A stretch of DNA of 10,546 nucleotides. Origin: Promethearchaeota archaeon (GTDB taxonomy: Archaea; Asgardarchaeota; Lokiarchaeia; Sigyniarchaeales; SOKP01). Under the pieces are notes generated by a model that was not told the origin of the DNA, made no database searches, and saw nothing but the letters and a program-made list of their open reading frames with translations. Shown here one piece after another: positions 240-10,411 of the stretch (within the stretch, counting starts at the first letter, position 1; every line of letters starts with the position of its first letter). The stretch is taken from NCBI GenBank assembly GCA_011364975.1, contig RDOE01000101.1, forward strand, positions 1-10,546, written 5' to 3'. The position numbers and the translations under genes were made by a program.

Positions 240-1115
240 TTGAATCAAATGATTGTTATGGAGTCTAAAACTGAGCCTAAAACTGAGATAGAATTCATAT
301 CAACTTCGGGAGTATTTAAAACTCCATTTAGCATGATTATAATTTTACAATTATTCGTTGGGGGCATAATTTTAATAGTTGTAAATTTATGGTTTTTAAA
401 TAGCATATATTTTCTTTTAACAGGATCCCAATTTTATCCATTTGAGCCGAAAGCAGAATGGTATTATTGGTTATTAGTTCCCTTAAATTGTTATGCGGCA
501 ATATATTTATTTACATTTACGGTAGTAGTATTTTCTGCAGGTATATTTAAGATTTTAAATAAAATATATCCTCCAAAAGAAGGAGTATTTGAAAAAGGCA
601 GTAAAGATTGGGTATATATGCATAGAAGATTTTGGACAGCGTATTTTCCAGTTTGGTTAGCAAGAACCTTACCTTTACCTTGGTTAGACATTGTTGCTTA
701 TCGTATATTAGGAGTGAAAGTAGGAAAAAATGTTGTATTATATGAAGGATATGTTGATCCCTTATTTATAAAAATTGGCGATTTTACCATGACATCCTTA
801 AATATTTGCATATTTTCTCATTTAATTTATCATGATAAGGTCTTAATTAAAAAGGTTAACATTGGTAAAGCGTGCGTAGTAGGTCCACATACTATAGTCT
901 CCCCAGGTACTATTATGGAGGATTTTGCAGTTTTAGGAGTAAATAGTTATACATCGATAGATCAAGAATTAAAGGGGAACCTTATCCATGTAGGAACCCC
1001 CGTAAGCATGACCTTACCAATTCAAAGCCTTGAAGAATCGCAGAAAAAGGCAAAGCAAGTACAACAAGGAAAGGATAACTCAAATTCAATTAAAATTGAA
1101 AAAAATTTAGAGTAA
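240..1115 (+). CDS. Membrane-anchored hexapeptide-repeat (LbH) acyltransferase-like protein, paralog 1
   Basis: Two N-terminal hydrophobic segments, then PKEGVF..., LGVKVGKNVVL, IKIGDFT, FSHLIY, VNIGKACVVGPHTIVSPGTIM and a terminal VGTP. The true start may be ATG 249 or 258 rather than TTG 240. Confidence 0.8.
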   Translation: MNQMIVMESKTEPKTEIEFISTSGVFKTPFSMIIILQLFVGGIILIVVNLWFLNSIYFLLTGSQFYPFEPKAEWYYWLLVPLNCYAAIYLFTFTVVVFSAGIFKILNKIYPPKEGVFEKGSKDWVYMHRRFWTAYFPVWLARTLPLPWLDIVAYRILGVKVGKNVVLYEGYVDPLFIKIGDFTMTSLNICIFSHLIYHDKVLIKKVNIGKACVVGPHTIVSPGTIMEDFAVLGVNSYTSIDQELKGNLIHVGTPVSMTLPIQSLEESQKKAKQVQQGKDNSNSIKIEKNLE

Positions 1116-1129
1116 GTGGTGAGAATTTT

Positions 1130-1864
1130 TTGTTTCAGCCAGCTAGTTTAAAAGGAGATTCACCTACACCCATAGATGAGAGAATAAGGAATAGATTTAT
1201 CATTATATATATTTTAATAATAATTTTTAGTTTTATTCCAGGTTGTTTTTTTGAATATTATTATATAATAACATTTTGGACAGAAACATTTTATTGGCTT
1301 TTTTTTCTCTTGCTTCCGTTCAATGTATTAATTCTTATATACTTAATTCAGATAAGTGCTACAATTATCGCTGCTTTAATAATAAAAGTGATAAATCTTA
1401 TACATACTCCAAAAGAGGGTAATTTTAAAAGAGCGATTAATGATAAAGATTACTTATATTGGAATATAAGGAATATTGTAAAGAAATGGCCCCTTTATGT
1501 GATGGCTAGTAATCCCTTTCCTTGGTTAAAAAATAGGTTTACGTTGAGGTTTTTTGGCGTAAAAATTGGACGCCATTGTATCTGCGATAATAGCTGGATT
1601 TCCTCTGAATTTGTATCGATTGGTAAGAATGTAATATTAGGAATGAATTCAACACTTATTTGTTTTGGTATTGAACAAGATAATTTCATACTAAGGAAAA
1701 TTATAGTAGAAAATGATGTGCTAATAGGAGCGAAGTGCGTAATCTTACCCGGGACAATAATCAAGCAAAATAGTAAATTAGAAGCTCATTCATATACTGA
1801 TTTCAATGAGACTCTCAAAGAGAATTCCCTTTATTCGGGGCATCCCGCTAAATTAAAAAGTTAA
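1130..1864 (+). CDS. Membrane-anchored hexapeptide-repeat (LbH) acyltransferase-like protein, paralog 2
   Basis: GGTGA RBS at 1118-1122 before TTG. Two TM segments, then PKEGNF, FGVKIGRHCI, VSIGKNVILG, VENDVLIGAKCVILPGTII and YSGHPAK. Starts 14 nt after paralog 1. Confidence 0.82.
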   Translation: MFQPASLKGDSPTPIDERIRNRFIIIYILIIIFSFIPGCFFEYYYIITFWTETFYWLFFLLLPFNVLILIYLIQISATIIAALIIKVINLIHTPKEGNFKRAINDKDYLYWNIRNIVKKWPLYVMASNPFPWLKNRFTLRFFGVKIGRHCICDNSWISSEFVSIGKNVILGMNSTLICFGIEQDNFILRKIIVENDVLIGAKCVILPGTIIKQNSKLEAHSYTDFNETLKENSLYSGHPAKLKS

Positions 1865-1904: not shown

Positions 1905-3137
1905 TTGCCACAATATAGGATATTAGATCAATTTAACCTTCTTTTAATCAGATATTCTGAGATTTGGTTAAAATCTCAAAAGGTAAAAATCCGGATGTTA
2001 AAAATTTTAATGGATAATCTCAAAAAACTATTAGAACGAGAAGGAATTTCTTTTCATAAATATCAATTAAGCAAAGATTCATCACGTATTTTATTCTTTT
2101 TCGACAATCTCGACATTGAAAAAGCAATAACAGTTTGCTTAAGAGTATTTGGGATTCATTCCATTAGTCCAGCTCTCAGAACATCAAGCAAGATAAACAA
2201 TATAATAGAGAGAACTTTAGAAGTGGCTCAACTAGTTTTAGAAAAAGGTGATACATTCGCACTTAAAGTAAAAAGATCTGGTAAACATGAATTTAGCTCT
2301 TTAGAAGTAGCACAAACTGTAGGAAAAGCTATATTAGATCAGTTCCCAGAATTGCGTTTAAAAGTTAATCTTTCCAATCCCAAGAAGATTATTTTTATTG
2401 AAATTAGGGCAGATTTTTCCTATATTTTTTTAGAAATTATTCCGAGTGATTGGGGTGGACTGCCTATTGAGTATAATAAGAAGGTACTTGTCATGGATAT
2501 CGGACGCATTAATGACCTCTTAGCAGGATTCTTGTTGATGAGAAGAGGTTGCGAAATATATCCTTTACTATTTGATAATAGCAATAATCAAGAGGCTGTA
2601 CAATCTTGGTTTGAAAACTGGCAAGAAGTCGCCAAATTTGTCCCGTATGATCGTATTCATCTTAAAAAAATTAATCTATATCAAATTTTATCTAATTTAG
2701 CAGTTAAATTAGAGGATAATACACATTTTTGCGCTTTATGTAGGATGATTCGAATGGCAATAGTAGCAAAATATCTTAAAACATCTAGCGAGCCGTTCAT
2801 TCCTAAAATCAGGGCTATTACAGACGGAGCATCCTTAAATAATATGACGATTTGTAACGATATAGTTGATTTAGAATCACTTTCTTTAAACTCATTATTC
2901 TCTGTTTATCCTATTTTCACTTCATTAATTGGATTAGACGAAAATATAATTAATAATCTCTTAACTCGCATATCTTCTAATTTAAATAAATTTACATATT
3001 GTGTCTTTAAACCAAAGAATCAAGAAATAAATGTAGAGACTGTAAAAAATTTATATGTAACCCTCAAGATTGAAGAGTTAGTTGAACAGAGTTTAACTAA
3101 TCTAGAAGATATTAAGCTATATTTTAAGTTGGATTAA
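1905..3137 (+). CDS. thiI: ThiI/TtuI-like tRNA sulfurtransferase homolog (NFLD + THUMP + PP-loop-like domain) with degenerate PP-loop
   Basis: N-terminal LIRYSEIWLKS; RVFGIHSISP; THUMP-type TFALKVKRSGKHEFSSLEVAQTVGKAI and VNLSNP; GGLP...LMRRG; CALC; PIFTSLIGLD. SGGxDS is replaced by IGRIND, so the symbol indicates homology only. Confidence 0.85.
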   Translation: MPQYRILDQFNLLLIRYSEIWLKSQKVKIRMLKILMDNLKKLLEREGISFHKYQLSKDSSRILFFFDNLDIEKAITVCLRVFGIHSISPALRTSSKINNIIERTLEVAQLVLEKGDTFALKVKRSGKHEFSSLEVAQTVGKAILDQFPELRLKVNLSNPKKIIFIEIRADFSYIFLEIIPSDWGGLPIEYNKKVLVMDIGRINDLLAGFLLMRRGCEIYPLLFDNSNNQEAVQSWFENWQEVAKFVPYDRIHLKKINLYQILSNLAVKLEDNTHFCALCRMIRMAIVAKYLKTSSEPFIPKIRAITDGASLNNMTICNDIVDLESLSLNSLFSVYPIFTSLIGLDENIINNLLTRISSNLNKFTYCVFKPKNQEINVETVKNLYVTLKIEELVEQSLTNLEDIKLYFKLD

Positions 3138-3212
3138 TAAAAAATTACAAAAAATTATTTTACAATGAAGCTTTTTATCTAATATATTTTATCAGTTACA
3201 TTGTGTGTTTTC

Positions 3213-3494
3213 ATGGCAAAAGTTGAATTGAATCTATTAAACATCTTTGCTTTAAAAGTGAAAAAGAATACTTTACAGTATGAAGCAAAAACCGTAGGCG
3301 ACATCATAACGAGATTCCTCAATGAATATGGAGAAAAATTAGATAGCAGTATCTTAAGCAAAAATAGAAAGAAATTGAATCCACAAATGGTTATTCTATT
3401 GAATGGACAAAATATAACATATATGAAAAGTTATAAGACAAAACTCAAGGATGGAGATAAACTCTACATTTCTTTTCCGATCTCAGGTGGCTAA
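3213..3494 (+). CDS. MoaD/ThiS/SAMP/Urm1-family ubiquitin-like (beta-grasp) sulfur carrier or protein modifier
   Basis: 93 aa from ATG 3213 (the track uses TTG 3201). Contains TVGDII and ILLNGQNI...TKLKDGDKLYISFPISGG, ending in a free Gly-Gly. Confidence 0.9.
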   Translation: MAKVELNLLNIFALKVKKNTLQYEAKTVGDIITRFLNEYGEKLDSSILSKNRKKLNPQMVILLNGQNITYMKSYKTKLKDGDKLYISFPISGG

Positions 3495-3612: not shown

Positions 3613-4563
3613 GTGTTAGTGGATGACAAAGTGAAAAAGCTAGCCTTCCTGGGTCTTGATAATGCTGGTAAAACTAGTATCATAACGGCCATAACTAAAA
3701 AGTTCGGTTATGAAGAAGAAATATTTAAATTAATGCCCACCAGAAAAATAGCGCGTGATGCATTCCGATTTCTTGGAATTGAATTTGTAAGAATGGATTT
3801 TGGTGGTCAGTTACAATATCGTGAAGAATATTTAAAACACCCGACTAAGTATATAAGTGGAACAGATTTAATTTACTATGTTATTGATGCCCAAAATTCA
3901 GAGCGTTTTGTGGAAACTGTTGATTATCTTGATCAAATTTTATTATTTTTAAAAGAAGAACGAGAATATCCTCCGATTTGTATTATATTTCACAAATTTG
4001 ACCCTCAAATTAGAAATGAAAAGGAAATTAACCAGAGAATCCTAACAATCAAGCAAGCTCTTACAAGATATAGTCATGATTTTGATATATTTTTCTTTGA
4101 AACAACAATATATGATATTAAGTCCGTAATGGATGCTTTCTCCTCAGGTCTTTCGTTACTATTTGAGAAAATGGAAATGGTGTCTCATTTATTTGCAGAA
4201 ATGAGTAAAAATTATAACACTTTAATGATTGCTTTGTTTGATGCTAAAGGAATTACAATTGGAGAATATTATAAACCACATCTTCATCTTCAAGAAAAGA
4301 TAAGAATATATGATAAATATCTAGAGACACAGAGAAGAATCATTGATCAGAATAGAAGAATGTTTGAATTCTCTGATAAATTTGACAACGGTCAAAGATA
4401 TTCTGGTTTGGTAGAACTTTTAAATTTTGGTAACTTAGATTTTTATCTACTTTTTATTATTGAGGAGGATAAGGAGGATTTAGCTTCAACTATTAAAATT
4501 TTAGATAAGATCGAAGCCGCTAAACCTCAAATGGAAAATATGATTTTACAACTAATTCAGTAG
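3613..4563 (+). CDS. Small GTPase (Arf/Rag-like) with a ~130-aa C-terminal domain, possibly roadblock/longin-like
   Basis: G1 GLDNAGKTS, G2 MPT, G3 DFGGQ, YVIDA, G4 HKFD, G5-region ETTIYD. The C-terminal region follows a helix-strand-strand-helix-strands-helix pattern (IALFDAKGITIGEY ... FYLLFII ... terminal helix). Confidence 0.9.
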   Translation: MLVDDKVKKLAFLGLDNAGKTSIITAITKKFGYEEEIFKLMPTRKIARDAFRFLGIEFVRMDFGGQLQYREEYLKHPTKYISGTDLIYYVIDAQNSERFVETVDYLDQILLFLKEEREYPPICIIFHKFDPQIRNEKEINQRILTIKQALTRYSHDFDIFFFETTIYDIKSVMDAFSSGLSLLFEKMEMVSHLFAEMSKNYNTLMIALFDAKGITIGEYYKPHLHLQEKIRIYDKYLETQRRIIDQNRRMFEFSDKFDNGQRYSGLVELLNFGNLDFYLLFIIEEDKEDLASTIKILDKIEAAKPQMENMILQLIQ

Positions 4564-4599: not shown

Positions 4600-4703
4600 C
4601 GCAGATGGAGGGAGTCGAACCCTCGAGCGCTTACGCGCACCGGCTTGCTAGGAGGATACGCATTCACTCGAGGCCGGCGTCTTACCAGCTAGGCTACATC
4701 TGC
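4600..4703 (-). tRNA. tRNA-Ser(CGA) with a 21-nt intron at 37/38
   Basis: Acceptor stem GCAGATG/CATCTGC with discriminator G; D-loop GG; anticodon stem CCGGC/GCCGG; spliced loop CT-CGA-G|A (anticodon 4670-4668); long variable arm GCGC-GTAA-GCGC; T arm GAGGG-TTCGACT-CCCTC. CCA is not encoded and a T-rich tract follows. Confidence 0.93.
4646..4666 (-). other. tRNA intron (TGAATGCGTATCCTCCTAGCA) with a relaxed bulge-helix-bulge motif
   Basis: Removing it restores a 7-nt anticodon loop. Bulges are A36-G37|U and C-A|A38; the central helix CUCG/CUAG has one C-U mismatch. Confidence 0.85.
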
Positions 4704-4849: not shown

Positions 4850-5146
4850 TTAAGCAGGAACATAAATCTTTAATTTTAAATCTTCATCTAAAAGTTTAAT
4901 GAGTCCTTCTTGTTCATAATGTTTGAGTAGTAGTTTAACTGCGGAAATTCGTAAATCATATTTTAAAGCAATGTCTGTTGCAATGATGCTTTTCCTTTTT
5001 GGAATTGATTCTCGAATTTCTTGTTCGATGGTATTAGGGATAAACGCATCCCTTTCTACAACATTAATTTGTTTGGTTCTACCGTATTTTCTCCTTAAAT
5101 TTAAGGTTGCTTTTCTGACTAGTAATTTTTCGTCCTTTTCAGACAA
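4850..5146 (-). CDS. rps25e: Small-subunit ribosomal protein eS25 (S25e)
   Basis: 98-aa basic protein. IPKRKSIIATDIALKYDLRISAVKLLLKHYEQEGLIKLL...KIYVPA matches the eS25 winged-helix pattern (VPxxKxITP...L.I..SLAR..L..L...GLIK.V.....IY). A GTGA RBS precedes the TTG. Confidence 0.85.
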   Translation of the reverse strand: MSEKDEKLLVRKATLNLRRKYGRTKQINVVERDAFIPNTIEQEIRESIPKRKSIIATDIALKYDLRISAVKLLLKHYEQEGLIKLLDEDLKLKIYVPA

Positions 5147-5293
5147 GATCGATCACATAAACCAGTTAAAATATTAAATATTTAAGCTGAATGAAATATT
5201 AAATACATAAAATTTAATAAAATTTTTGATTTGGGATTATCTATCTAAGATTTTATATCATATTGGAAAAAAACTTAAATAAGCCATTAGCAA

Positions 5294-5932
5294 TTGAACG
5301 ATAAATTTTTCTTTCATGTGAAAAAGCAGAGACCCGAAGAAACATTTGGAAGTGTTATTGATTATTTTGATGAGAGTAGATGTAGTGAATATTCTCAATC
5401 TAAAAGTATGATGAGAATTCAAAGAAGAATAACACTTAGGGCTCTTGAGTTATTGGAAATACCAAAAGGTAATCTTCTTATTCTTGATGCAGGTTGTGGT
5501 CCCGGATTCACCTCGTTTTATCTTAATGACCTTAAATATACCCTTATAGCTTTAGATTTAATCCCATATTTTTTAAAATACTATGATATGCGGATAATCA
5601 ATCCAATCTCCGCAGACATGTGCTTTTTACCCTTCAAACCAAGCATATTTGATGCGATTTTGTCTATCTCTGCATTACAATGGGTTTATAGGGAGATAAA
5701 TAATCAAAAAATGAATTTCAATCTTATAAATTTAATTAAATCCTTCTATAATGTTCTTAAACCTAACTCTAAAGCAATATTCCAATTTTACCCTAAAAAT
5801 ACTGCTATTATGGATAGTATTGGAAAAATTATAACAAATAACAGTCGCTTTAAAGGAAACTATATAATTGATAACCCAGAGAATCCTAAAAAAAGAAAAG
5901 TTTTTTTGATGCTGCAAAAAGAAAGTGAATAA
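5294..5932 (+). CDS. Class I SAM-dependent methyltransferase, Bud23/WBSCR22-like (SSU rRNA m7G methyltransferase homolog)
   Basis: SAM motif ILDAGCGPG plus Bud23-type blocks: RPE, YFDE..CSEYSQ..MMRIQ..IT.RALELL, LPFKPSIFDAILSISALQW, AIFQFYPKN and IDNPENPKKRKVFLML. Confidence 0.85.
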   Translation: MNDKFFFHVKKQRPEETFGSVIDYFDESRCSEYSQSKSMMRIQRRITLRALELLEIPKGNLLILDAGCGPGFTSFYLNDLKYTLIALDLIPYFLKYYDMRIINPISADMCFLPFKPSIFDAILSISALQWVYREINNQKMNFNLINLIKSFYNVLKPNSKAIFQFYPKNTAIMDSIGKIITNNSRFKGNYIIDNPENPKKRKVFLMLQKESE

Positions 5933-6154: not shown

Positions 6155-9100
6155 ATGTACAAACGAAAATATCGAACAATTCATGGAAAGGCTTTAGTTT
6201 TACTTTCATTTCTTCTTGTATCAATGGTCTATGGTAGCATAACGCTTTTTATAGTCAACCTATCTGATAATACGATGAATTTAGATGAAATATCTGGCTT
6301 TAATAACCCCGAAGAAGTAAGTTCTCCAAGAACGAACGCCATTAGTCTTGATTCTTGGTGGAATGCCTCATTTTTATATCGGAGACTATTAAATATTACA
6401 AACTTGTATACTGAGGATTTAGTTGATTTTACAACTTCAATCACATTTGATTATAGTGAGTATGTTTCAAGTGGACATATGAATTCAAGTTTATATGATA
6501 TAAGAGTAGTAGAAAATGGAATTCTGAGAGATTATTATTATGAAATAGATTATCCAAATCCTAATTATGTGACTTTGTGGTTTAAAACTAATTGTTCCGC
6601 TAGTTCAACCGAATACGACACATTCTTATATTATGGTAATAACACGGTTGGTCGAGCGACTAGTTATTATATGTCACAAAATCCTGAAGGGTTAATGTGG
6701 TATTCATTTGATAATGATTATCCCGGACTTATGATTGATAAACTGAATAATTATAATGCTACGGCTTATAATAGTCCAACTCATACTACAGGAAAAGTAG
6801 GCAGCTATTCTCTCAGCTTTAATGGAAATAATCAATATTTAGGAATAGAAGGAAAAAATTATAATACAGTAGGAGCGATTAGCCAATTAACTGTTTGCCT
6901 TTGGTTTCAAACTTCTTTTATTGGAAGTAGTTATAATGACAACTGGGCATTCTTTGATTATGATCGGTCAGAATATTTTAACTTTTATATTCGAGGAGAT
7001 AATGGACAATTAGGTTTCTCTTCAGCTAGAAGTGGTATTGATGATTTTTATAGCAACACTGGAACTTTGAATGATGGGGATTGGCATTTTGGAGTTGCTG
7101 TTTATGATGGAATAGATAAATACATATTTATTGATCCTTCTTCGGGTCAATGGGATGCTAGAGACCTTAATTCCCATTCAGGATTAGCCATAGGTACAGG
7201 AACTTTGAGATATGGTATTATAGGAGATGGTTCTGAAGCAACTAGTGTTGGAACTCCTCGTAATAATATCTATTATCAAGGATTAATGGATGAGATAAGA
7301 TATTTCGAACGGGCACTTTCAGGAAAAGAAATTGAATGGTTATATAAAGGATACGAGCTACAAACAACATTAAATGAAGAACAAGAACAACTTGCTCAAG
7401 TAATTCTTACTTGTTATGATGTTGATAATAGAATCGTTCCAAATGCCGAATTAATTTTAATTAACGCAACTGATGGATCTATTGTTTCCATTCAATCTAC
7501 TTCGGCAGATGGTACTGTAGAATTCAATCAATTAGAATATGGTGCCTATAATATTACAGTAAATTACACTCTCAATGTTGGAACTGAAGATATTGTTTAT
7601 GATAGTAGTCAAAGTAAATATGGAGGGCCAATCCAATTTATGCTTACAGGCCTTTATCACACTTTTGATATTATTTTAGACTTATGGACAATTGATTTTG
7701 AGATTGTTGACTGGGATTATCAACCAATGAATCAAGGATTTATTACAATTTGTGAGACATCAACTAGTCCAGTAATTGAAACACTTAATTTAAATAGCGA
7801 AGGAAAGGCAACTTTCCGTTGGCATAATAGATCATCATACTACTATAAGGTGTATTATCAAAACGAAGACTATAACCCTACTTTAACTCCATTAAACGCA
7901 AGTGATATTTTTAGGAATGAATATATATCAAATCAAAAGTATTATACTTCCTATTTCAATGTAAATGAAACCAGTACAGGACCCGTTGGTTACTTTGAAG
8001 TAAGTGAACGAATTTACACTGCCGGCTCAAAAAATCAAATAACCGATAAAAAAATATTAAAAGCCAATATTACATTATCAAATATGGAGGAACATCTTGA
8101 TTCAGTAAAAATCTATTATGTTAATAGTGAAAATAAGACCTTTACTAGTGTTTCAGGAGATCATTTAATCTTTAAAAACACATCTTATGGTGTTGGGGAT
8201 AGTAGTGACTTTATTCAGCTTGATATGAGACATCCACAGACAATAAGTAATCCTTTAGTTGCTGACAATTATGAAGTTTATGGTCTGTATTTTGAAATTG
8301 AGGGGACTAACAGTACACAATGTAATGGGGTAATAAAAATTGATACACTTGAAACCCTTTACATTTTTAACAGGACGGAATTATCAAAAATATCAATTAA
8401 AGTAGTTGATGAACCACCGACCAGAATTCCAGTTCCAGGTGTGGTAGTTCATGTTTTCAATGGATCAATTACTGATTCTAATTCCTTAGTTAATTTAACT
8501 ACTGATCAAAATGGAATGGCATATGGACTACAAAATTCGGATATAGGATTTTGGTATAAAAGAGGTGTAAGTTATAATTTTACATTAGAATTTTTCGGAG
8601 AAAGCGATAAGGATTTTACTGTAAATTACACCTCTCCATCTCAATGGATGCCTTTATATCCTAATAGTGTGACTAAATATAATTATACGTTAAATAGCGA
8701 ATCTTCAATCATTTTTGAATTGATAATTGATTCAAGTGACTTTATAACAGAATTCTTGGAATCATTTGGCGATACATCTGCTGATTGGGGTCAGGATATT
8801 ACATATTCAGTGAACTATACGTATTCAACCGATGGAGGATCGTCTTGGTTTCCAATAAATACTGCTGATGAAGTTAAACTAACTATTAAGGATTTTGATG
8901 GTGTAATTGTTTTCTCAAAACCTTTAGCACCTTTGGGTAATGGTAATTTCACCACTACACTTGATTCTGGGATTTTATCAGCAGGTTTTGAGAGTAGTAT
9001 TTATACTATTGAAATTACTGGAAGAAAAGCAGGATATGGAAATCCAGAGAAAGTAATATTCGTGCTTCAACTCTATGCGACTCTAACTGGTTCAAGTATT

Positions 9101-10411
9101 CACGATTATGATAATATGCCTCAAGAAATTTCTCGTGTAACTCAATATTATAATGAATTGGTAAATATAACTACCTCATATTATCCATCATCTAGTCCTA
9201 GCACGTTATTACAGGGAGCGATATTGAGTTATAGTTGGGATTATGGCTCAGGTTTCAATATTGGCGAAGATCTAATTAATCCAGGATATTATACTTTTGA
9301 AATAGACACCTCCTTAACCCCAACTACTGGAATATATAGTATAGATATAAGTATTGAACTTGAAAATTATACCAGAAGTAACTTCGCAATATTTCTTGAG
9401 ATAATTCCAAGACATACTGATTTAAACGGTACAAGTAGCCTATATCATGTTTCTAAGGATCTCTGGGTAAAAGATTCTTTCAATTTTACCTTTGAGTATA
9501 AGGACATAACAGGGACATCAGATTATCGAATTGAAAACTCAGAATTAGCCTACTACTATTGGTACCAACTTGCAGAGGATGGAAGCCCCTTAGGGAGTCC
9601 AAGTACAGATATTGATTTAATTGAAACAATAGATAACTTATATTTGATCGATTTTGACACAGCAAACAGAGATGTAGGGAAATACGCCCTGTTCGTTACA
9701 ATTCAAAAAAATAACTATGAAGTAAGAAATGCTTTCATCAATTTAGAGATAAAATATAGAACTATTGCTCACTCCATTACTGCTGTAGGTTTAGAAGGTT
9801 CCCAGATCAACGTTATTCAAGGTGATGATATTATGGTAACCTTAGATTTATCAGATGAGTCAAGAAGCTTAGATCCTCTTATAAATGCAACCATAATTTT
9901 AATGGTTGGGGGAAATTCATATCAATTTACTGAAGTAGGTAATGGTCAATATCAATTTGTTTTTCCGACTGATAATATCGATGCATTCTTTATGCCACAA
10001 TTTCTTCAGGCTAGCATTACGATATCTAAAGAAGATTATATTTCCAAAGAACTTAATCTTACTTTTGTCGTTGGTATGCCGGAGATCTTTCCGGGATTTC
10101 CGATGTTCTATTTCTTAATAATAGTTATTGGAGTTGCTGCGGTTGTGGGTAGTTTAGTGATTTATCGCCAGATTCAAAGAGCAAGAATTCCAACCTTCGT
10201 TAAGAAAGCAAGAGAAATGAGCAAGAACATCAAGGGAAGGAAATCAATTTCAGACTCACTTATATATCCTTCTAAAGAAGAATATATAACCAAAAAACTT
10301 GGTGATAAATGGGCTATGCTTGGCTTATCATTAGATGATGTTTATGGTCTTGAGGGTAAGAAGAGAAAAAAATTACCCGAAGTAACTGAAACAGAAGGAG
10401 GTGGTATGTAA
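6155..10411 (+). CDS. Large membrane-anchored cell-surface glycoprotein: DUF2341-like + LamG/ConA-like lectin + Ig-like/carboxypeptidase-regulatory-like beta-sandwich domains + C-terminal TM + cytoplasmic tail
   Basis: Basic N-terminus and hydrophobic helix (aa ~13-35); WWNASFLYRR...DIRVV...TLWFK...YYGN (DUF2341-like); WYSFD...GKVG..SLSFNG...LTVCLWF...NDGDWHFGVAVYDG...YQGLMDEIRYFERALS (LamG); PNAELIL...TSADGTVEF..LEYGAYNITV; many NxS/T sequons; TM at aa ~1317-1337; ~80-aa basic tail. Confidence 0.88.
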   Translation: MYKRKYRTIHGKALVLLSFLLVSMVYGSITLFIVNLSDNTMNLDEISGFNNPEEVSSPRTNAISLDSWWNASFLYRRLLNITNLYTEDLVDFTTSITFDYSEYVSSGHMNSSLYDIRVVENGILRDYYYEIDYPNPNYVTLWFKTNCSASSTEYDTFLYYGNNTVGRATSYYMSQNPEGLMWYSFDNDYPGLMIDKLNNYNATAYNSPTHTTGKVGSYSLSFNGNNQYLGIEGKNYNTVGAISQLTVCLWFQTSFIGSSYNDNWAFFDYDRSEYFNFYIRGDNGQLGFSSARSGIDDFYSNTGTLNDGDWHFGVAVYDGIDKYIFIDPSSGQWDARDLNSHSGLAIGTGTLRYGIIGDGSEATSVGTPRNNIYYQGLMDEIRYFERALSGKEIEWLYKGYELQTTLNEEQEQLAQVILTCYDVDNRIVPNAELILINATDGSIVSIQSTSADGTVEFNQLEYGAYNITVNYTLNVGTEDIVYDSSQSKYGGPIQFMLTGLYHTFDIILDLWTIDFEIVDWDYQPMNQGFITICETSTSPVIETLNLNSEGKATFRWHNRSSYYYKVYYQNEDYNPTLTPLNASDIFRNEYISNQKYYTSYFNVNETSTGPVGYFEVSERIYTAGSKNQITDKKILKANITLSNMEEHLDSVKIYYVNSENKTFTSVSGDHLIFKNTSYGVGDSSDFIQLDMRHPQTISNPLVADNYEVYGLYFEIEGTNSTQCNGVIKIDTLETLYIFNRTELSKISIKVVDEPPTRIPVPGVVVHVFNGSITDSNSLVNLTTDQNGMAYGLQNSDIGFWYKRGVSYNFTLEFFGESDKDFTVNYTSPSQWMPLYPNSVTKYNYTLNSESSIIFELIIDSSDFITEFLESFGDTSADWGQDITYSVNYTYSTDGGSSWFPINTADEVKLTIKDFDGVIVFSKPLAPLGNGNFTTTLDSGILSAGFESSIYTIEITGRKAGYGNPEKVIFVLQLYATLTGSSIHDYDNMPQEISRVTQYYNELVNITTSYYPSSSPSTLLQGAILSYSWDYGSGFNIGEDLINPGYYTFEIDTSLTPTTGIYSIDISIELENYTRSNFAIFLEIIPRHTDLNGTSSLYHVSKDLWVKDSFNFTFEYKDITGTSDYRIENSELAYYYWYQLAEDGSPLGSPSTDIDLIETIDNLYLIDFDTANRDVGKYALFVTIQKNNYEVRNAFINLEIKYRTIAHSITAVGLEGSQINVIQGDDIMVTLDLSDESRSLDPLINATIILMVGGNSYQFTEVGNGQYQFVFPTDNIDAFFMPQFLQASITISKEDYISKELNLTFVVGMPEIFPGFPMFYFLIIVIGVAAVVGSLVIYRQIQRARIPTFVKKAREMSKNIKGRKSISDSLIYPSKEEYITKKLGDKWAMLGLSLDDVYGLEGKKRKKLPEVTETEGGGM

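Follow-up and report, generated by a model that had tools for sequence, protein, structure and literature searches.

A tail-less Bud23-type methyltransferase gene lying head-to-head with eS25 in a Lokiarchaeial genome, with putative guanine-N7 activity on 16S rRNA

Introduction

The DNA considered here is a window of 10,546 nucleotides from a Promethearchaeota archaeon of the class Lokiarchaeia (contig RDOE01000101.1, assembly GCA_011364975.1), and one of its genes, called gene A below, raises the question of whether an archaeon encodes a genuine relative of Bud23 and what such an enzyme would do. Bud23 of Saccharomyces cerevisiae and human BUD23-WBSCR22 are 18S rRNA (guanine1575/1639-N7)-methyltransferases that work with Trm112/TRMT112 (PDB 4QTT, 4QTU, 6G4W, 7WTT).

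The absence of Bud23 or of its m7G from archaea is stated in the available text of three papers of 2015, 2017 and 2018 (PMC6144793, PMC5372719, PMC4472018), and in that of PMC6144793 it is specified that neither Haloferax volcanii nor archaea generally have a Bud23 orthologue. The available tables of Birikmen 2021 (PMC8481954), the main text of which does not contain the word “Bud23,” list BUD23 under Asgard with an abundance filter and without comment, also under Eury and TACK when unfiltered, but drop it altogether at the strictest setting (Table S10), and they assign it to LUCA or to LECA according to the filter applied (Table S5). JGI automatic labels give the name Bud23 to 9/120 homologues among the matches listed. 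A full-text literature search, with most subscription texts outside its scope, returned no paper pairing Bud23 with Asgard or K19306 with archaea; Bud23 gave no match in the supplementary files to PMC12962969, PMC13247210 and PMC12872458, two scanned files and external data apart, and the accessible portions of PMC4678810, PMC12605026 and PMC5699541 hold nothing on archaeal Bud23. Apparently, the archaeal Bud23 family has been auto-listed once and never described or tested.

Results

Gene A and its surroundings

The window carries the following features:
240-1864, plus strand: tandem pair of membrane proteins with domains of hexapeptide repeats (left-handed beta-helix) (Pfam)
1905-3494, plus strand: THUMP/ThiI-like protein (TIGR00342, 132 bits, cut-off 264), then a ubiquitin-like protein of SAMP/MoaD type with a C-terminal GG
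3613-4563, plus strand: Rag/Arf-like small GTPase with a C-terminal extension (Pfam Gtr1_RagA, E 4.8e-22)
4600-4703, minus strand: tRNA, read as tRNA-Ser(CGA), whose variable arm is long and whose anticodon loop holds an intron, just downstream of eS25 (Rfam; missed by ARAGORN)
4850..5146, minus strand: eS25 gene, head-to-head with gene A (Pfam Ribosomal_S25, 30.2 bits, cut-off 28.8)
5147..5293, no strand: spacer between the divergent starts of eS25 and gene A, 147 bases, A+T-rich (read from the sequence)
5294..5932, plus strand: gene A (paralogue A), encoding a class I SAM methyltransferase of Bud23 type without the tail; open frame of 212 aa with a TTG start
6155-10411, plus strand: surface protein of 1418 residues; laminin-G-like domain, hydrophobic segment late in the chain, charged tail (Pfam and sequence)

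The database copy of gene A begins at GTG 5318 and yields 204 aa; the TTG start was preferred because the first eight residues are conserved among relatives. We infer from the sequence that the spacer may be a promoter region shared by the two divergent genes; a sigma-70 promoter scan gave counts at chance level, with a model ill-suited to archaea. The names borne by close homologues and the genes nearby (eS25, SAMP, Rag-like GTPase) likewise mark the source as a Loki-type Asgard archaeon. Eukaryotic contamination was ruled out, gene A being intron-less, lying amid archaeal genes, and having full-length copies with the same neighbour across genomes of its own family. The copy at one locus (L040, genome G131) contains a single in-frame TAA, which is either an assembly error or the mark of a pseudogene. 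The PP-loop, a usual ThiI feature, is hard to see in the THUMP/ThiI-like protein.

Relationship to Bud23

In a phmmer search of the PDB, the gene A protein matched six sequences at E<=0.001, five of which are orthologues of Bud23 or the corresponding chains of cryo-EM structures (residues 12-208, E 8.7e-27 to 6.5e-19), human and yeast Bud23 being the closest (E 1e-26 to 4e-24). The sole other match, to residues 58-135, is a generic methyltransferase at 5.3e-6, an E-value over 18 orders of magnitude away from those of yeast and human Bud23. The entire catalytic domain aligns with that of Bud23/BUD23 at 32–34% identity, with a TM score of up to 0.86, and the span of the PDB matches bears out the likeness beyond the SAM motif that the preliminary description had read from the letters. 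An AlphaFold2 model of the protein (pLDDT 90.7) retrieved eight Bud23/BUD23 chains as the top eight Foldseek matches (E 1e-19 to 4e-16, TM 0.73–0.86 by query), the ninth match following at E 2.8e-10 and TM 0.55. Reciprocally, the gene A frame was the best match of 26/26 eukaryote-clade proteins among 3957 frames of the source genome, with paralogue B second, in a test that is biased, these 26 proteins having been found with the gene A query.

The preliminary description had named generic UbiE/BioC-like enzymes as the identity to be set against Bud23, and a small-molecule methyltransferase of this kind, resembling Bud23 by chance, would suit the Pfam result (generic methyltransferase domains only), the position of BioC (TIGR02072) as the best NCBIfam match, and the UbiE label borne by relatives in some databases. 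However, the BioC match reached 46.3 bits against a cut-off of 184.95 and covered residues 41-132 only, no UbiE model was among the NCBIfam matches of the protein, and the E-value gap, the fold search, the reciprocal matches and the tree described below all speak for Bud23. BioC/UbiE-type class I enzymes share with gene A the SAM-binding core (residues about 41-163), but they have neither the N-terminal nor the C-terminal motifs specific to Bud23 and stand apart in the tree, and gene A falls far under their curated cut-offs. The generic identity is extremely improbable and, within the reach of sequence and structure, refuted; by both, the full gene A domain is nearer Bud23 than any other methyltransferase.

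Motifs, guanine pocket and the missing tail

The motifs below were read from the translation of gene A (plus strand):
R13-P14-E15; I42-Q43; R49-ALELL; D65-AGCGPG
S124-ISALQW-W130; F163-QFYP-K-N169; D193-NP-ENPKKRK-VFLML-207

Every motif named at the outset from the letters alone (RPE, IQ, RALELL, SISALQW, QFYP and the C-terminal K.RK.FL.L) is present, and gene A shares with Bud23/BUD23 the RPE, IQ, GxG, D88, SxSxxQW and QFYP elements and the C-terminal basic loop. We take yeast S118, W122, Y159 and I31 to be the lining of the guanine pocket in Bud23, and the first three correspond by alignment to gene A S124, W130 and Y166. In a 99-row alignment, S124, S126, W130, Q164 and Y166 are found in 26/26 eukaryotic and 14/14 Lokiarchaeial A rows, and RPE in 23–26/26 and 12–14/14, respectively, while W130 is found in 0/10 generic methyltransferase rows serving as the outgroup. 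Clade and tail served to label the 26 eukaryotic rows; only some of these bear names, with one row in a cluster with an abalone bud23-like protein, one from EukProt and one matching the human chain. The SAM site consists of G67, G69 and D88 in a class I fold, which supply the GxG motif and the acidic residue that follows strand 2. The alignment pairs G69 and D88 with human G63 and D82, mutation of either of which gives a catalytically dead enzyme according to the available text of PMC4472018.

Two typically basic eukaryotic positions are changed in gene A. Column 32 holds K/R in 18/26 eukaryotic rows and E in gene A, and column 38 holds R/K in 24/26 and S in gene A; K37, beside column 38, is kept in 13/14 Lokiarchaeial A rows. 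The yeast counterparts of E32 and S38, K21 and R27, are presumably rRNA contacts.

The protein has eight to twelve additional N-terminal residues compared with Bud23/BUD23 and ends at residue 212, whereas the yeast and human proteins (275/281 aa) continue into a basic C-terminal tail, about 50–90 residues long in most eukaryotic rows. The end thus falls, as had been proposed, where the eukaryotic basic extension begins. The tail family PF12589 gave no Pfam match in the gene A protein and was not found in a search of the source genome run without a positive control. Because this extension is missing, gene A was filed as a tail-less variant and not as a full Bud23 member. As far as the available texts state, the yeast Bud23 crystal structure was likewise solved without the tail (PMC5372719), and the tail holds helix 18 (PMC9723619).

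The Trm112 partner and neighbouring assembly factors

The predicted partner was found by genome search:
C106:98123-98752 of the source genome, minus strand: Trm112, 207 aa, its two zinc-knuckle halves set apart by a long central insert

The search for Trm112 and the modelling of the complex had both been proposed in the preliminary description. The ESMFold2 model of gene A protein with this Trm112 scored 0.92, the best of three controls scoring 0.01, on a mark reached by 116/157 solved complexes and by 2/215 mismatches; at least 98% of contacts agreed between runs, with a partner pLDDT of at least 91. Since the Bud23–Trm112 complex had already been solved, the model is to be read as likeness and not as binding. 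Gene A protein would likely pair with the Trm112 of its own genome.

The interface does not name the substrate, because archaeal Trm112 binds many methyltransferases, as the available text of PMC6144793 sets out for its many partners. The H. volcanii partners listed there (Mtq2, Trm9, Trm11 and Hvo_0019) have the class I fold of gene A, and the predicted Trm112 interface of gene A resembles these pairs, but none of these partners, as they appear in the accessible part of that paper, shows the Bud23 motifs. An Asgard–eukaryote Trm112 subfamily has been proposed in PMC13734099, the available text of which does not mention Bud23. Among DPANN carriers of the Bud23 family, a small Trm112 frame was clear in only 2/20, and the DPANN Trm112 Pfam matches lie mostly in frames of 300–400 residues, probably other zinc ribbons, which leaves co-occurrence uninformative.

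Genes for Emg1/Nep1 and Rio2 are both present in the source genome. The eukaryotic counterparts occupy the Bud23 site before and after Bud23, according to the available portions of PMC9723619 and PMC8848936.

Gene neighbourhoods and paralogue B

In the following, f1 denotes the source genome's own family, f2–f7 further families of the same class, and f27 a family outside that class. eS25 lies head-to-head with gene A in 30/30 best f1 loci, the present one included, with 126–159 bases between the matches, and in 7/7 further loci of own-family type. Among 12 f2/f3 loci, eS25 is head-to-head in seven and within 2 kb in three more; A is directly followed by B in 11, with uS10 beyond in eight. The Bud23-type gene of f27 stands head-to-head with uS7 in 3/3 loci (L033, L034 and L035 in G300, G303 and G302). 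eS25, uS7 and uS10 are proteins of the small-subunit head, in which the target base also lies. Kin loci are not independent, and these observations therefore amount to about three independent linkages, not forty; read from gene order, the context points to the small-subunit head. There was no conserved ribosomal neighbour at 18 DPANN loci scanned (one eS6 lay three genes off), nor any ribosomal linkage at two f5 loci, two f4 A loci (one adjoining eIF5A) and the locus of genome G397. In many own-family loci, a Rag/Arf-like GTPase stays near eS25, and genes related to the 1418-residue surface protein follow gene A.

Unlike the Bud23/BUD23 system, the source genome has a second paralogue, found by genome search:
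C22:15739-16437 of the source genome (L053:3940-4593), minus strand: paralogue B, 218 aa, with 28% identity to A

Its pocket is changed (QW to NF, Q164 to E in 10–11/11 rows), and the target of B probably differs from that of A, to judge by these residues. uS10 is 5 kb from paralogue B on contig C22 and adjoins B in many relatives. A 412-residue metagenome protein (P0127) joins a B-type domain to an A-type one in a single chain, and the fusion suggests that A and B may work together. Another protein (P0134) has an additional, different methyltransferase-like domain.

Distribution

The phylum survey covered 400 genomes, with only seven candidates scored per genome. A or B was present in 127/134 genomes of the own family, with full-length A in 100 (rows at E<=1e-60), and carriers in the other families of the class numbered 1/1 (f2), 13/14 (f3), 4/4 (f4), 2/3 (f5) and 0/4 (f6 and f7). 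In 239 genomes of other Asgard classes, the only carriers were 3/4 genomes of f27 and G397 with a B-type gene; the Bud23-type family was not found in the other 235/239. G397 (locus L036) has the B-type gene only and is the sole carrier outside the own class and f27; its neighbours are unmatched in the source genome. A further 16 other-class genomes gave weak matches (E 1e-15 to 3e-21); those inspected, in 3/16 of these genomes and in two own-class genomes, were rejected as generic, with partial profile cover and a place in the outgroup. A conserved Asgard methyltransferase family with a Y-x-x-R-Y..IQ helix (L107, L108, L109, L111 and C144:1294-1917 of the source genome) forms one outgroup clade (100/97).

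Records labelled Heimdall-, Hod- and Hermodarchaeota at NCBI (P0033, P0049, P0065, P0093, P0111 and L118) look like Lokiarchaeial f1. Presence in those three lineages was not accepted, five NCBI-labelled matches scoring best against Lokiarchaeial f1 rows; the records were taken as mislabelled Lokiarchaeial bins on account of their f1-like sequence and of the f1 gene order on a “Hermodarchaeota” contig.

A profile search identified DPANN carriers in 11/151 genomes of the Micrarchaeota phylum (seed included), 7/201 of Nanoarchaeota and 2/61 of Iainarchaeota, by which an “Asgard-only” family is ruled out; the same type of search gave 0/251 in Thermoproteota and 0/121 in euryarchaeal genomes, with 0/91 in a second, overlapping and hence not independent, euryarchaeal sample. 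Among 1.84 billion representatives searched, many relatives of 185–240 residues lie outside Lokiarchaeia, the named ones being Micrarchaeota and Nanoarchaeota. Among the 80 loci listed in a further scan, there was no full-length bacterial match.

The candidate target base in 16S rRNA

We assume E. coli G1338 to be the equivalent of yeast G1575. The 16S assembly of the source genome covers model positions 4-828 only, without the 3' half. In other Asgard genomes, the G at this position is kept in 20/20 16S sequences aligned to E. coli K-12; these site-reaching sequences represent 19 genomes and come from the 24/40 genomes with a 16S match. The base is kept across nine A-carrying, one B-only and nine non-carrying genomes, and the target G therefore exists but does not discriminate carriers. 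No 16S signature of gene carriers was seen in the four regions compared; the 16S of G397 differs at the position two bases after the target G. The archaeal 16S rRNAs analysed to date have shown no m7G at this site, according to the available text of PMC6144793, PMC5372719 and PMC4472018. The archaeal lineages behind these statements are lineages in which no gene A was found in the present study.

Phylogeny

The main tree (LG+C20, 99 rows, 206 columns) included 26 eukaryotic and 18 other rows chosen from 150 representatives. The Bud23 family separated from 10 generic methyltransferases at 99/94, and the eukaryotic rows formed one clade (100/100). Eukaryotes joined Lokiarchaeial A and most DPANN rows, the DPANN RPE group (98/93); the rows of f27, f5 and B fell outside, as did some of those from DPANN. 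The free tree placed Lokiarchaeial A among DPANN rows (96/92); on all 99 rows, a tree with eukaryotes and Lokiarchaeial A alone together scored 6.6 log units above it (p-AU 0.58). The AU test, run on 69/99 rows under LG+F+G4 and LG+C20 with short searches, the fast constrained ones being noisy, rejected none of six sister hypotheses for eukaryotes, B included (p 0.12–0.78). Membership of gene A in the Bud23 family is firm; orthology within the family and the direction of descent are not, and no sister of eukaryotic Bud23 is singled out by the tree.

Discussion

Taken with the pocket, the partner and the gene context, the family membership of gene A makes it probable that this gene encodes a Trm112-assisted 16S rRNA m7G methyltransferase for the G1575-equivalent base, as a putative activity. 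The protein would bind its predicted partner Trm112 and SAM, the pair would dock on the head of the immature small subunit (30S), and it would there methylate N7 of the 16S guanine equivalent to yeast G1575, with substrate, position and timing proposed by analogy. As in yeast, the nascent P-site region may be bound between the actions of Emg1/Nep1 and Rio2. Being tail-less, the protein could serve as a simpler factor, devoted chiefly to catalysis or to head folding, and for want of the tail it would miss the helix-18-holding job of eukaryotic Bud23.

Two other roles accept the Bud23 ancestry and deny the mark. The enzyme might act on the small-subunit head without making the G1575-equivalent m7G, either methylating a neighbouring nucleotide or serving mainly as a head-folding chaperone; Bud23 catalysis is dispensable for the assembly role in yeast and human, according to the available text of PMC8848936 and PMC4472018, two basic positions differ in gene A, and linkage to genes of head proteins suits either role. 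However, the tail that holds helix 18, as described in the accessible part of PMC9723619, is missing, and the SAM and pocket residues are invariant in 14/14 Lokiarchaeial A rows, which argues for retained guanine chemistry and against such a role; we regard it as unlikely. The enzyme might also be a Bud23-derived purine N-methyltransferase that acts elsewhere, on tRNA, another RNA or a free purine; the linkage to eS25 would then reflect shared expression only. The patchy distribution and the DPANN loci without conserved ribosomal context fit this idea, as do the resemblance of the Bud23 active site to xanthosine methyltransferase, noted in the available text of PMC5372719, and the pocket of the sister paralogue B, already changed from QW to NF and from Q to E. 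Against it stand the separate linkages to eS25, uS10 and uS7 across lineages and the N-terminal RPE/IQ helix and C-terminal basic loop common to eukaryotes and gene A, and we consider another substrate distinctly unlikely. The putative 16S m7G activity is accordingly the reading retained below.

The preliminary description had also suggested that the gene points to an archaeal origin of this step of 40S maturation. What stands is that the rooted tree fits an archaeal source better; the narrowing of this source to Asgard ancestry does not, the family being patchy and the sister left unnamed by the tree. That the archaeal copies reflect transfer between early eukaryotes, Lokiarchaeia and DPANN, as against eukaryotic inheritance from an Asgard ancestor, would agree with the failure to find the family in 235/239 other-class Asgard, 251 Thermoproteota and 121 euryarchaeal genomes, with carriage in only 3–7% of the DPANN genomes sampled, with the place of Lokiarchaeial A among DPANN rows in the free tree (96/92) and with the outcome of the AU test, which rejects no sister hypothesis. 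On the other hand, the eukaryotic clade (100/100), rooted on generic methyltransferases, lies inside a deeper archaeal diversity with two old paralogues, and the tree joining eukaryotes with Lokiarchaeial A scores 6.6 log units higher (p-AU 0.58). This nesting makes an archaeal source a better fit than eukaryote-to-archaea transfer, and transfer among the three groups is, in our estimate, somewhat unlikely. Owing to the patchy distribution and the unresolved tree, gene A alone gives no support to an Asgard origin of eukaryotic 40S maturation.

More tentatively, and with rather less confidence than would be needed to adopt it, the P-site m7G and Bud23–Trm112 could be archaeal inventions still working in Lokiarchaeia, f27 and some DPANN. 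Lokiarchaeial A would then mark the G1575-equivalent base and B place a second mark on the small-subunit head, and eukaryotes would have added the basic tail, turning the enzyme into an assembly checkpoint.

Gene A contradicts the statement, repeated in the Trm112/Bud23 literature, that archaea have no Bud23 and no such m7G. It leads to the prediction that one named 16S base carries m7G in Lokiarchaeia but lacks it in those Asgard lineages that have no such gene. Moreover, a natural tail-less Bud23 separates the catalytic job from the eukaryotic assembly job and, catalysis being dispensable in both yeast and human, bears on what the m7G mark is for.
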